From: Escherichia phage phiEc_1
Sequence record: LC768462.1
DNA length: 64,000 nucleotides
Direction: 5' to 3' (one strand)
The position numbers were made by a program, and so were the translations under genes. This document shows positions 19,849 through 55,878 of the stretch, in pieces (position 1 is the stretch's first letter; every line of letters starts with the position of its first letter). The notes under the pieces are model-generated. The model was not told the origin of the DNA and made no database searches. It saw nothing but the letters and a program-made list of their open reading frames with translations.

Positions 19849-20048
19849 TCACTAGTGCCAGATTTGACAAACTAAATTCCTTTATAAACCAACCACTTAG
19901 TAAATTTATCGAAAAAGATGGTAGTATTCTGGGACTATGGGTAATGCTCTGTATATAGACCCTTTGAAAATTTCTTAGAAAATAAGTTTACTAAATATAA
20001 CTTACTTAAATAATATTACTTTTAATCTCTGATAAAGGGTAAAATGAT

Positions 20049-23022: not shown

Positions 23023-23095
23023 GCGCTCTTAGCTCAATGGATAGAGCAGTAGCCTTCTAAGCTATTGGTTACAGGTTCGAGTCCTGTAGGGCGCA
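23023..23095 (+). tRNA. tRNA-Arg (anticodon UCU); CCA encoded at 23096-23098
   Basis: hand-folded cloverleaf: 7-bp acceptor stem, D-arm, anticodon loop CU-UCU-AA, T-arm ACAGG-TTCGAGT-CCTGT. Confidence 0.9.
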
Positions 23096-47938: not shown

Positions 47939-49783
47939 GTGAGCAACCCGGACGCTCTTCCATTTTTGACAGAGATGACTGTCGCTGATATAATCTCTAA
48001 GCAAGCAAAGCACGGAGTGAGTTTCAACCGAAGAAATGCTCGGTGGTATGTTCACCTCCTTAAAGAGATTATTGTTAATATTGACAGAGAGTTGATTCCT
48101 CTCTTACCTAAGATGAGATTAGATGGCTCTACTTACATGAAGCCGTTTAAGAAGTCTGGAGCTTTACAGAAGTGGCCTCAAGCCTATTGTGATAGGGTTG
48201 GGCTGAAGAGAGAAGACATTGGTGGAGCTTTCACCTGTGTCGAATACGTAGACTTTGACCCATCGAAAGATGCACGAGTTAAAGAAGCTCTTATGGATGA
48301 GGGCTTTCTTCCTCCAGAGTTTAACGTATCTAAGAAGCCTTGGAATACTTTCGAAATTAAGAAAGATATGAGAAAGTATGGAACATACCAAGCATGGTAT
48401 ACTGCTTGGATGCGAGGAAATGCTAAGCAGAAGCAGACAGCCGAGATGGTTGACGCTGATATTAAGAAGTTCTTAGAAAAGCATTTTAGGTTTAAAACTA
48501 AGAACTATATGAAGGCTTACGTATTTGGTTTGGGATTAAACCCGAATCGTCGTAATCCTGTAACGTTTGATGAGATTAAGAAAGCGCTAGCCACATCAAA
48601 CAAGTGGCCTACAGCTCCTACAAACCTCGAGGAGACTCTTGAAGAAGGGTTAGGGGGTGAGCTAGGGAGTGTCGGAAGTTTGCTTAAGAGACGCGTTGTA
48701 GCGGCTCACAGGCTAGGTCTTATCAGTGGACTTATAGCAAAGGAACGCGAAGATGGTAAACTTTCGGCAGAAGCTAACAGCTGCGCTACGCCGACTTTTC
48801 GATTCAAACATCGTATCGTTGTTAATATTCCCTCCCGTGGTTTGTTTGGTCATGAGTGTCGCAGTTTGTTTGAGTCTGACTATAACTCAGACAGTGATCA
48901 TTCTCGTCCTTTCGTTATTACTAACGTTGTTCCTGATGGTTGTTATATACGAAAAGGTACTAACGTAATTTACGAGAAAGGTAAGCCGGGGAAGAAAGAC
49001 AAACCTGTAGGTGCTTACAAATATTACATACCCGCTGGTAAAGAAGTATTCTTAGGGTATGATGGTTCTGGACTTGAACTTCGTATGCTCGCTCACTACC
49101 TCATTAAAGAGTGTAGGGATATGCTTGCTGAGGCTATCGAAGAGAACAACCCAGCTAAGAAAGCTCTGGCAGAACGTGGTTTAGCTTCTGCTATTATGTA
49201 TCGTGATATTCTCCTTGAAGGTGATATCCACTCCCACAACCAGAAACTTGCTGGTCTTCCTACTCGTGACAACGCTAAAACGTTTATCTATGCATTCAAC
49301 TACGGTGCTGGCGATGCTAAGCTTGGTTCAATTGTAGGTGGTGGGGCTGACGAAGGTTCAGTGATGCGAGCACGTTTCTTAGCAGAGAACCCATGTATTG
49401 CAATCCTCATTGATCGTATGACAGAGAAAGCTGCTCAAGGATACTTGATTGGAGTTGATGGTCGTAAGATTACAATGAGACGGGATGCCACTGGTAAGGT
49501 TATGGTTCATAAAGCCCTTAACACACTCCTGCAATGTGCTGGTGCTGTTGTTATGAAATATGCTATGATGTTCCTTAACAAGTGGATTGAGAAAGATAAG
49601 GTTCGTTGTGCTAAGGTAATTGATATGCACGATGAAGGTCAATTCTCAGTAAACCGTAATGATGTACAGAAACTCAAAGAGCACACCGAGCTTTGTGTTA
49701 AGAAGGCTGGTGAGTATTTGAACATGGAATGCCCTCTGGCTTCTGATTGTCAGATTGGACTTAACTGGATGCACACACACTAA
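47939..49783 (+). CDS. family-A DNA polymerase, polymerase-domain polypeptide
   Basis: motif A DGSGLELRMLAH, motif B RDNAKTFIYAFNYGAG, motif C HDEGQF; N-terminus aligns with T7 DNA pol just after exo domain. Confidence 0.85.
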   Translation: MSNPDALPFLTEMTVADIISKQAKHGVSFNRRNARWYVHLLKEIIVNIDRELIPLLPKMRLDGSTYMKPFKKSGALQKWPQAYCDRVGLKREDIGGAFTCVEYVDFDPSKDARVKEALMDEGFLPPEFNVSKKPWNTFEIKKDMRKYGTYQAWYTAWMRGNAKQKQTAEMVDADIKKFLEKHFRFKTKNYMKAYVFGLGLNPNRRNPVTFDEIKKALATSNKWPTAPTNLEETLEEGLGGELGSVGSLLKRRVVAAHRLGLISGLIAKEREDGKLSAEANSCATPTFRFKHRIVVNIPSRGLFGHECRSLFESDYNSDSDHSRPFVITNVVPDGCYIRKGTNVIYEKGKPGKKDKPVGAYKYYIPAGKEVFLGYDGSGLELRMLAHYLIKECRDMLAEAIEENNPAKKALAERGLASAIMYRDILLEGDIHSHNQKLAGLPTRDNAKTFIYAFNYGAGDAKLGSIVGGGADEGSVMRARFLAENPCIAILIDRMTEKAAQGYLIGVDGRKITMRRDATGKVMVHKALNTLLQCAGAVVMKYAMMFLNKWIEKDKVRCAKVIDMHDEGQFSVNRNDVQKLKEHTELCVKKAGEYLNMECPLASDCQIGLNWMHTH

Positions 49784-52546: not shown

Positions 52547-52952
52547 AGAACCTGTAGTACATAAAGACTCTATCAGAGATCAATATAATGAGATGTTAAA
52601 GAAACAAGCTGATTCTAATCTTCGTTATCAGAGGATAGTAGAACAATCTAACTTTAAAGGTTTACTTGAATGGTAACTTATATTGTTTACTTCTTAGCTT
52701 TCTTAGGAATAATCTTTTTATCTATTCTTATTGAATTTGGTTTAAGTAAGTTAGTTAATTATTTAGGTAATAAGTAATTATTATTCTTTTAAATAGAGAA
52801 TCAAAGTCCCTAGGAGTCCCTACAACCTAAATCAAGGATTCCTTAATTCTCTATTTTTATCTCGCAGGTGGCTCCTGCCCTTCGGTACTTGCAAGGGATT
52901 CTGTGAATTGCCCAATATACAAGCCTGCAATAACTTTATCAGCTATACAATA

Positions 52953-52961
52953 TATACATTA
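52953..52961 (-). promoter_or_regulatory. TAATGTATA motif in inverted orientation
   Basis: forms inverted pair with copy at 53015. Confidence 0.35.
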
Positions 52962-53014
52962 CTAGTGTGTTATATCTACTACCAAAGATACTTATATTAT
53001 ATAGTACTCTTATC

Positions 53015-53023
53015 GGTATAAGC
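53015..53023 (+). promoter_or_regulatory. TAATGTATA motif (candidate phage-specific promoter element)
   Basis: 70 nt upstream of SSB ATG. Confidence 0.45.
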
Positions 53024-53092
53024 GTAATGTATACTATACATAACCGCTCAAAGAGAGCAACAATCTTTCAAATTAAATAAGGAAATTACAAT

Positions 53093-53839
53093 ATGTCTAT
53101 GATTCCAACTATCGCAACTGCTTCCCGTAAATCCAACTACGATGTAATCCCTGATGGTGAATACGAAGCACGTATCGTTCGTGTAGTAGGTTTGGGTGTT
53201 CACAATCGTGACCCTTGGATTGACCCGAAGACCAAAGCAGTAACTCCTAAGAATCCGGCTTTCCGTATGGATTTAGCTTTCGAGCTGATTGGTGTTGATG
53301 CTACTGGTAAAGATTCCGATGGTAAGGCATTAGAACCACGTCCGGCTTGCCAGTTCAAGAGCTATGATGTAAACCCACGAGCTAAAAACTCTGGTATTCT
53401 TGATCTTTGCAAAATGATTGACCCAAGTATTCAAGCACTGAAAGGTGATCTGTCTTGGTTCAAGGATGTTCTGTTAGGTCAGCCTGTTAACATTCTGGTT
53501 AACTCTTATACTAACAAAGCTGGTGAAGTTAAAAACTCCATCAAGACCATTTCTCCAATCCCAACCAAATATCGTGCAGCAGTTGGTGAAGCTCGTAGTC
53601 CTCTGGTATTCTTCGAACCGTATGCTGAAACCGATGAGAACGTAGCATCCTATCAACTGATGTTCCCGTTCCAGCGCAACCTGCTTACTCAAGCTAATGA
53701 CGCTAAGAACATGCCTCTGGCTGGTCGTGAAATTACTCGTGCTTCTGAAACAGAGCAGAAAGAAGCTACTCCTTCAATCCCTACGATTGATAAAGAGCCT
53801 GCTTCTACTTACGAAGACGACAACGATAGCCCATTCTAA
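53093..53839 (+). CDS. single-stranded DNA-binding protein
   Basis: 248 aa with acidic C-terminal tail ending DDNDSPF; inferred from tail and position. Confidence 0.65.
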   Translation: MSMIPTIATASRKSNYDVIPDGEYEARIVRVVGLGVHNRDPWIDPKTKAVTPKNPAFRMDLAFELIGVDATGKDSDGKALEPRPACQFKSYDVNPRAKNSGILDLCKMIDPSIQALKGDLSWFKDVLLGQPVNILVNSYTNKAGEVKNSIKTISPIPTKYRAAVGEARSPLVFFEPYAETDENVASYQLMFPFQRNLLTQANDAKNMPLAGREITRASETEQKEATPSIPTIDKEPASTYEDDNDSPF

Positions 53840-53860
53840 TAACTCTCCTTGTTATAGCTT

Positions 53861-53885
53861 AGCCACCTCCGGGTGGCTTTTTTCG
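53861..53885 (+). terminator. intrinsic terminator
   Basis: AGCCACC-UCCG-GGUGGCU + U5. Confidence 0.65.

Positions 53886-54392: not shown

Positions 54393-55878
<1,486 letters not shown>

Follow-up and report, generated by a model that had tools for sequence, protein, structure and literature searches.

A candidate small-RNA gene behind a putative second, leftward gp36 promoter upstream of gene 40 in Escherichia phage phiEc_1

Promoters and genes upstream of gp40

We analyzed the region upstream of the gene for the gp40 homologue (phi32_40) of Escherichia phage phiEc_1, in which a candidate small-RNA gene lies back to back with a known promoter for the phage sigma factor gp36. The analysis used a window of 64,000 nt (LC768462.1), the plus strand of which is the reverse complement of the GenBank orientation. 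Over 2 kb around the region, the sequence is 99.2% identical to that of Escherichia phage vB_EcoP_SU10, and over 491 bp it is 98.8% identical to that of phiEco32; judged from its sequence, the window is a Kuravirus genome (phiEco32/SU10-like, Gordonclarkvirinae). A preceding sequence-only reading had taken the region for a 400-bp intergenic one, but its first ~100 bp are coding, as they belong to a conserved 35-codon open reading frame (ORF) homologous to phi32_41, and the non-coding part comprises about 52778–53092. The same reading had named the downstream gene as that of a single-stranded DNA-binding protein (SSB). This label is based on a predicted OB fold and on the acidic tail at the C-terminus; no Pfam or PDB sequence match was found to support it. 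The features of the locus are the following.

52670–52777, plus strand: phi32_41 homologue, a hydrophobic mini-ORF of 35 codons (PHROG 24970, E 3e-26)
52786–52946, minus strand: predicted non-coding RNA of ~160 nt; the 5' end at A52946 (about 36719 on the GenBank plus strand of phiEco32) is predicted, the 3' end near the base of hairpin H4 (52788–52792) is uncertain
52792–52855, no strand assigned: hairpin H4, contains the 11-bp inverted repeat; as minus-strand RNA, an outer stem of 12–15 bp with two G·U pairs and two short inner stems
52865–52879, minus strand: hairpin H3, GCAGG AGCCA CCUGC in the RNA strand, with variation (C/A) only in the loop
52887–52924, minus strand: H2, version A of the middle domain, with two G·U pairs that are invariant on the minus strand
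52930–52946, minus strand: H1, 5'-terminal hairpin AUAGCU-GAUAA-AGUUAU, starting at the predicted +1
52951–52985, minus strand: orphan gp36-type promoter with the -10-like TAATGTATATA (52961–52951) and the -35-like TTGGTAGT (52985–52978)
52962–53024, no strand assigned: variable inter-promoter spacer, ~70% A+T, contains the orphan -35 element
53025–53033, plus strand: -10-like TAATGTATA of promoter P40, predicted +1 near A53040
53046–53058, plus strand: P40 mRNA leader hairpin GCUC-AAAGA-GAGC, with a covarying stem
about 53079–53084, plus strand: ribosome-binding site (RBS) AAGGA of gp40, with the ATG at 53093
53093–53839, plus strand: gp40 homologue (phi32_40), SSB-like, with a predicted OB-fold and the acidic tail DDNDSPF
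54852–55499: gene for the phage sigma factor gp36, downstream of gp40
47939–49783: DNA polymerase, in the same replication gene cluster as gp40 and a 5'-3' exonuclease

The gp36 promoter consensus is a single element, tAATGTAtA, located at about -15 to -7, with the start site 6–8 nt downstream (PMC8948821; PMC4281155), and gp36 promoters have been detected experimentally upstream of genes 6, 13, 26, 40, 58, and 68 (PMC4331800). Table S2 for SU10 contains the entry 'aagcgtaatgtatactatacataaccgctcaaagagagcaa, between CDS37 and CDS38'. As this sequence matches window positions 53020–53060 exactly, the plus-strand TAATGTATA is the known middle promoter P40, and its transcription by E. coli core RNA polymerase with gp36 is published (PMC8948821, PMC4331800). 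The window holds five copies of TAATGTATA at an expectation of 0.64, a number reached in none of 100 shuffles; the other exact copies are the promoters of genes 58, 26, and 13. All six known promoters are followed by an RBS and an ATG within about 55 nt. Transcription from P40 would cover the SSB-like gene and then, further downstream, the sigma factor gene. Nine of the ten P40 columns at 53024–53033 are invariant in relatives, and at -35 P40 has only AGTA, which is not conserved. The stem of the leader hairpin covaries in relatives (GUUC/GAAC, GUCC/GGAC, GUUCA/UGAAC), and within the leader (53040–53092) the flanking AACCG...ACAATC is nearly invariant.

The sequence-only reading had reported TAATGTATA as an inverted pair. 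Its elements are real, and what it missed was the identity of TAATGTATA with a known promoter motif, together with the coding nature of the first 100 bp. The pair exists and the minus-strand copy was correctly placed at 52953–52961; the plus-strand copy, however, is located at 53025–53033 and not at 53015–53023, and because of this shift by 10 nt the gap between the copies is 63 nt instead of 53. The full inverted repeat around the pair measures 10 bp (GTAATGTATA/TATACATTAC). A cruciform or a single dimeric binding site was rejected as an explanation of the pair because the spacing ranges from ~50 to ~210 bp in relatives. The suggestion of a divergent promoter pair was borne out insofar as TAATGTATA corresponds to the element published for gp36-sigma promoters, with P40 as its plus-strand copy.

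The minus-strand copy at 52953–52961 appears neither in the list of gp36 promoters of genes 6, 13, 26, 40, 58, and 68 (PMC4331800) nor in SU10 Table S2. It apparently belongs to a second phage-sigma promoter, so far unreported and back to back with P40, which is referred to here as the orphan promoter. Upstream of its -10 element lies TTGGTAGTAGATAT, which according to a k-mer comparison recurs at only one other place in the window, namely the middle promoter P68; P68 is reportedly among the gp36-dependent promoters of phiEco32 described by Pavlova et al. in 2012. Common to the orphan promoter and P68 (41853–41885) is the succession of this 14-mer, 10 nt, and a -10 element of the form (T/A)AATGTATATA, at identical spacing. 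The motif TGGTAGT-N-AATG is found in the window in P68, in the orphan promoter, and at one other place only; this third match, TGGTAGTATTCTGGGACTATGGGTAATG at 19919–19946 (plus strand), is without the rest of the -10 consensus. In the cryo-electron microscopy (cryo-EM) structure of the P68 open complex, the C-terminal domain of gp36 contacts G-37 and A-34, and mutating them abolishes transcription (PMC12276001). Both bases are present in the orphan promoter, in the GGTA of its TTGGTAGTAGATAT element, and the numbering of the P68 structure places the predicted +1 at A52946.

Conservation was evaluated in 21 aligned phages belonging to three genera and in a set of 32 distinct sequences that comprised GenBank phages and sequences from IMG/VR, metagenomes, and Logan/ENA contigs collected via gp40 homologues down to 71% identity. 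The orphan -10 element is invariant in 21/21 aligned phages and 83% of the -35 columns are invariant, whereas the 12 nt between the two elements contain no invariant column; TGGTAGT is kept in all 32 distinct sequences. The promoter points against the flow of the surrounding genes, with no RBS or ATG within reach downstream and no conserved ORF. It differs in this from P68 and the other known promoters, in that it is unlisted, opposes the gene flow, and leads into structured non-coding sequence instead of an RBS and an ORF. A single sequence, the metagenome contig ERZ1034915 NODE-75 (locus L031), has TAATATATA at the -10 position, which may reflect a sequencing variant or a natural allele with reduced promoter activity. 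Between the orphan -35 element and P40, phage myPSH2311 (L007) carries an insertion of ~150 bp, and insertions of the same type are found in L028, L031, and L033–L036; the myPSH2311-type insertion holds a 46-codon ORF on the plus strand (MKFNHKYAATEKARAYVTARQSRVYKRQSPTNNSKETFVWTKPTTFR).

Structure and conservation of the predicted RNA

The RNA that would arise from the orphan promoter is composed, from 5' to 3', of a terminal hairpin (H1), an exchangeable middle domain, a GC hairpin (H3), and a long hairpin (H4) that corresponds to the inverted repeat. H1 was found in 32/32 distinct sequences with a stem of 5–7 bp; it begins at the seventh nucleotide after the 9-mer, which is the predicted +1, and is followed by UGCA. 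Seven versions of its stem exist (AUAGCU/AGUUAU, AUAGCU/AGCUAU, AUAGA/UCUAU, AUAGUU/AACUAU, AGAGUUA/UAACUCU, ACAUC/GAUGU, and AUCUCU/AGAGGU). In a 15-sequence alignment, two pairs are changed on both sides, and the covariation score was matched by none of 500 shuffles. The middle domain occurs among relatives in three unrelated versions, each with its own hairpin or hairpins: version A as in the window, version B in L005, L006, and L007, and version C in L039, L045, and L052, with a hybrid in L048. Within version C, two compensatory pairs distinguish L045 from L052, and in H3 of L052 an A-U pair is replaced by U-A, the one compensatory change of this hairpin. The exchanged sequence covers 52886–52925. 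The distribution of the middle-domain versions departs from the gp40 phylogeny, and the breakpoints lie exactly at the edges of the invariant block, resembling a cassette-exchange hotspot.

This block (52786–52885) consists of H3, the spacer GAGAUAAAA, and H4. In it, 89% of the columns are invariant. The corresponding value for the first 400 nt of the gp40 coding sequence (CDS) is 66–74%, with an identity of only 80% at third codon positions, and the block retains ~95% identity even in phages whose gp40 proteins share only 71%. The sequence-only reading had noted several repeats here. The 11-bp perfect inverted repeat (AAATAGAGAAT at 52791–52801, ATTCTCTATTT at 52846–52856), the direct AGTCCCTA repeats (52805–52812 and 52815–52822), and the GC-rich hairpin (GCAGG-TGGCT-CCTGC, 52865–52879) are present as described. 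The inverted repeat can be lengthened to 14 nt if one mismatch is allowed or, as minus-strand RNA, to 15 bp with two G·U pairs. A further palindrome, given as AAGGA-tt-TCCTT, is also present, but its spacer in the window is a single T (AAGGA-T-TCCTT), and the TT spacer is found in some relatives only. Of 300 dinucleotide shuffles of the region, 9 contained a perfect inverted repeat of at least 11 bp, so that such a repeat is only modestly unusual; for the reality of all these elements, conservation across relatives is a stronger argument than shuffle statistics. That the large inverted repeat, real as it is, would share a transcription unit with the minus-strand promoter motif had been overlooked. 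The proposal of a small antisense RNA locus agrees with what was found, a complete and conserved promoter of the P68 type on the minus strand followed by covarying RNA hairpins and no ORF.

The fold of the minus strand has a minimum free energy (MFE) of -45.8 kcal/mol (z -2.37), that of the plus strand -35.3 kcal/mol (z -1.47), and the minus strand is the more stable one in 26 of 27 distinct relatives, by about 6–10 kcal/mol. The G·U pairs of H1, H2, and H4 would become A·C mismatches on the plus strand. All insertions and deletions in H4 of relatives fall within loops of the minus-strand fold, and they would interrupt the best inner helix of the plus strand. The G·U pairs, the fold energies, and the positions of insertions and deletions all favour folding as a minus-strand RNA. 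A minus-strand ORF of 32 codons with a TTG start (52832–52930) was rejected as a gene, being destroyed in versions B and C of the middle domain, and the block is without a third-position pattern.

A search of the window against Rfam at gathering thresholds identified only a tRNA at 23023 and no family for the predicted RNA, and a tRNA/tmRNA scan gave nothing in the region. At E values up to 10, the Rfam search yielded two matches at chance level, DUF2815 RNA and MIR8007. The DUF2815 RNA match (53054–53095, plus strand) scored 14.8 bits versus a gathering threshold of 41.2 and is probably due to chance, because only the RBS/AUG part aligned and the hairpin is lacking. This motif is known from positions upstream of phage SSB-like DUF2815 genes, which makes its context here a curious coincidence.

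Module exchange takes place exactly at both edges of the block, with different genes on the left and three unrelated middle domains on the right, and its patterns do not track the gp40 phylogeny. Such a picture could also be drawn for a DNA-level boundary or recombination linker at which gene modules swap, or for an operator-like array recognized by a phage DNA-binding protein, and the block indeed contains CCTAGG, AAGGA-TCCTT, and CTTGCAAG palindromes besides the direct AGTCCCTA repeats. The promoter-stem-loop (PeSL) cassettes of T4-type phages were considered for comparison with the block as a module junction. We regard a mere boundary or binding site as quite improbable: it leaves the orphan promoter, the covariation of H1, and the strand asymmetry of the G·U pairs unexplained, and it is compatible with an RNA gene, as a consequence of the conservation of the block rather than as an alternative to it.

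A covariance model of the 3' domain found one copy per genome and had no match in relatives lacking the module. In a BLAST search of 52780–52950 against 5,426 E. coli genomes no match was obtained, and the sequence is therefore neither host-derived nor directed to a long host target. An exact 22-mer of the block was absent from GTDB genomes, and in IMG/VR and JGI metagenomes it was found in Kuravirus-type contigs only, plus two chance marine matches. Relatives with gp40 at 63–69% identity lack the module and have a different leader of 146 nt; in the Grimontviridae and in Lahexavirus only 55–75 nt are found upstream of the gp40 homologue, and the module is absent from the Grimontviridae. Owing to this distribution, the module is specific to Kuravirus, Suseptimavirus, Nieuwekanaalvirus, and a few uncultured relatives. 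The 146-nt leader (L041–L043 and L051) contains a TAATGGATA motif, a GCTTAGCTTAGCTTTG repeat within a GCATAT...ATATGC hairpin, and a second hairpin (TTGTCCA-AGA-TGGACAA), and it is without a divergent promoter or the conserved block.

Hairpin H4 and the function of the locus

On the plus strand, H4 consists of an 11-bp A/U-rich stem with two G-C pairs and a 44-nt structured loop, followed by the invariant UAUUUUUAU; the T-run after the stem, TATTTTTATC (52852–52861), is invariant in relatives. H4 directly follows the stop codon of whichever gene lies upstream and abuts it in L039. In view of the invariant plus-strand U-run and this position, H4 was read as doing double duty. It would serve as a structural or protective element at the 3' end of the minus-strand RNA, and on the plus strand it is probably the terminator of the upstream operon as well, so that two convergent transcripts would share one hairpin. 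A scan for sigma-70 promoter and terminator consensus sequences gave counts at shuffle level and did not call H4 (few G-C pairs, loop >8 nt).

The locus might, with low probability, consist of nothing but a plus-strand intrinsic terminator (H4 and its U-run) and P40, the minus-strand motif being a silent look-alike or an insulator; in the latter variant convergent transcription would block read-through into the gp40-sigma operon and the RNA product would have no role of its own. This would account for the invariance of the plus-strand U-run UAUUUUUAUC next to a variable minus-strand tail and for the position of H4 right after the stop codon of the upstream gene, up to the abutting arrangement in L039, and P40 is documented. 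A terminator, however, needs neither an invariant 40-nt loop nor a conserved H3, and H4 was not called in the consensus scan. A silent look-alike, in turn, would not retain its -10 and -35 elements while the 12 bp between them vary freely, and it would not precede a covarying hairpin at a fixed position.

The replication origin proposed by the sequence-only reading is not supported as such, but the locus is compatible with a transcription-activated one. In this main rival explanation, which we consider about equally unlikely, the orphan promoter, alone or together with P40, opens the DNA or primes its synthesis by the AT-rich spacer and the conserved block acts as an origin element at the DNA level. 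The phage-specific, middle-class promoter with no gene behind it suits such a role, as do the divergent-promoter spacer of ~70% A+T in what is the lowest-GC kilobase nearby, the location within the replication gene cluster (DNA polymerase, SSB-like gp40, 5'-3' exonuclease), and the extreme conservation of the 100-bp block; the literature searched describes no origin for these phages. Yet a covarying 5' hairpin at +1 and strand-specific G·U pairs suggest selection for a free folded RNA, which a primer or an R-loop does not need. Moreover, the AT-rich stretch precedes the orphan promoter instead of following it as in T7 and T4, and the sequence downstream is structured and contains GC hairpins. 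There are no iterons beyond the two 8-mers, and the module is absent from relatives with gp40 at 63–69% identity and from the Grimontviridae. GC skew shows only a local dip with no lasting switch and gives no origin signal because it follows the direction of transcription.

The reading that we favor, with a probability of roughly 0.6, is that 52778–53092 carries two back-to-back gp36 promoters, the leftward of which makes a non-coding RNA of ~160 nt with a regulatory function. This P68-class promoter, with TTGGTAGT at -35 and TAATGTATATA at -10, would start transcription at A52946, and from the middle phase onward the product may act as a stable regulatory RNA whose invariant 3' domain binds either a protein or an RNA target that is itself conserved. 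A 5' hairpin at +1 is a classic protection of stable RNAs; for this reason, and as the P40 mRNA likewise has a covarying hairpin a few nucleotides from its start, stability of the RNA is favored. Of the two halves of the locus, P40 was already known; for the other, a phage-sigma small-RNA gene that had not been listed before is the most likely identity.

Several points weigh against this view. The U-run UAUUUUUAUC is invariant in every relative and fits a plain plus-strand terminator, whereas the minus-strand tail after H4 varies (AUUUAAAAG, AUUAAAAUC, UUUAAAAC) and is not a conserved U-tract, which leaves the 3' end of the RNA undefined. Covariation is limited to H1, H3, and the middle domain because most of the RNA is invariant, and for the 3' domain alone the covariation test is weak (38/500 shuffles). 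In L031, the -10 element (TAATATATA) has lost the -11 G, a base contacted by gp36. No target or partner was found in a k-mer search of the window or by BLAST against the E. coli genomes; complementarity and extra copies in the window were at shuffle level, promoter elements excepted. The leftward RNA is deduced from sequence and comparison, the literature search found no Kuravirus transcriptome, and the primary phiEco32 promoter paper may already mention the orphan site or report it silent.

Two more specific modes of action do not fit. In a cis-antisense RNA of the lambda oop type, complementarity would hold for any sequence, and the upstream gene differs between phages, so that the invariance would remain unexplained; besides, the conserved RNA does not reach beyond the stop codon of that gene. 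A type I toxin-antitoxin pair of the hydrophobic gp41 and the convergent RNA was dismissed because many phages keep the RNA without gp41. More tentatively, H3 and H4 could form the RNA or DNA core of a Gordonclarkvirinae replication origin for which a phage-sigma transcript supplies the primer. Alternatively, they could bind an essential phage or host protein as its RNA cofactor or as a decoy, which would explain why the block is more strongly conserved than the neighboring genes.

The product of the phi32_41 mini-ORF (MVTYIVYFLAFLGIIFLSILIEFGLSKLVNYLGNK) is very hydrophobic, and its ATG overlaps the stop codon of the preceding ORF. The gene, often unannotated, is found in some Kuravirus genomes; many relatives with the RNA module lack it or have a truncated copy. 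On the other side of the locus, SU10, WFI101126 (locus L001, 4350–4763), and several other phages have a gene for an HNH homing endonuclease right after gp40. The window is without this gene at 53839–53873, which accounts for a 424-bp gap in the best BLAST matches.

Known systems and implications

The oop RNA of phage lambda, 77 nt long, is transcribed from pO next to replication genes and converges with the pR operon; it was first proposed as a replication primer before it proved to regulate cII as an antisense RNA. The RNA predicted here is likewise a short orphan transcript between an upstream operon and replication-related genes, which opposes the operon and ends in a hairpin, and the same two functions, primer or regulator, compete for it. 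Unlike oop, it would require a phage sigma factor for its transcription, has about twice the length, and does not overlap an upstream CDS; the conservation of its 3' domain goes far beyond what cis-antisense action needs, and the upstream gene varies among relatives.

Precedents for transcription-linked origins are phi1.1A/B, phiOL, and phiOR of T7 and the R-loop origins ori(34) and ori(uvsY) of T4. With phiOL, phiOR, and the T4 R-loop origins the locus shares an orphan phage-specific promoter without a gene, and with it a set of T7-like DNA polymerase, SSB, and exonuclease. In contrast to these origins, the transcript appears to be selected for its own secondary structure from +1 on, and no AT-rich unwinding element lies downstream. 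A convergent RNA pair that shares a terminator hairpin is known from RNA I and RNA II of the pAD1 par locus. Here, too, two convergent units would meet at one long hairpin, and for this reason the 3' ends of their transcripts would be complementary. Unlike in pAD1, there is no link to a toxin, as many phages with the RNA lack gp41, and a good U-tract is found on one side only.

PhiEco32 serves as a model for sigma factors encoded by phages; the set of its gp36 promoters has been treated as complete at six, and the cryo-EM study of 2025 used P68 as the reference promoter. If the proposed reading is true, a seventh promoter of the P68 class, fully conserved and pointing the 'wrong' way, would add a non-coding output to the transcription programme. 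In at least three genera, the 3' half of its RNA shows stronger conservation than the neighboring proteins. The locus would then be a candidate for the place at which replication starts, and for the element that insulates the gp40-sigma operon from upstream transcription, in coliphages that are used therapeutically.

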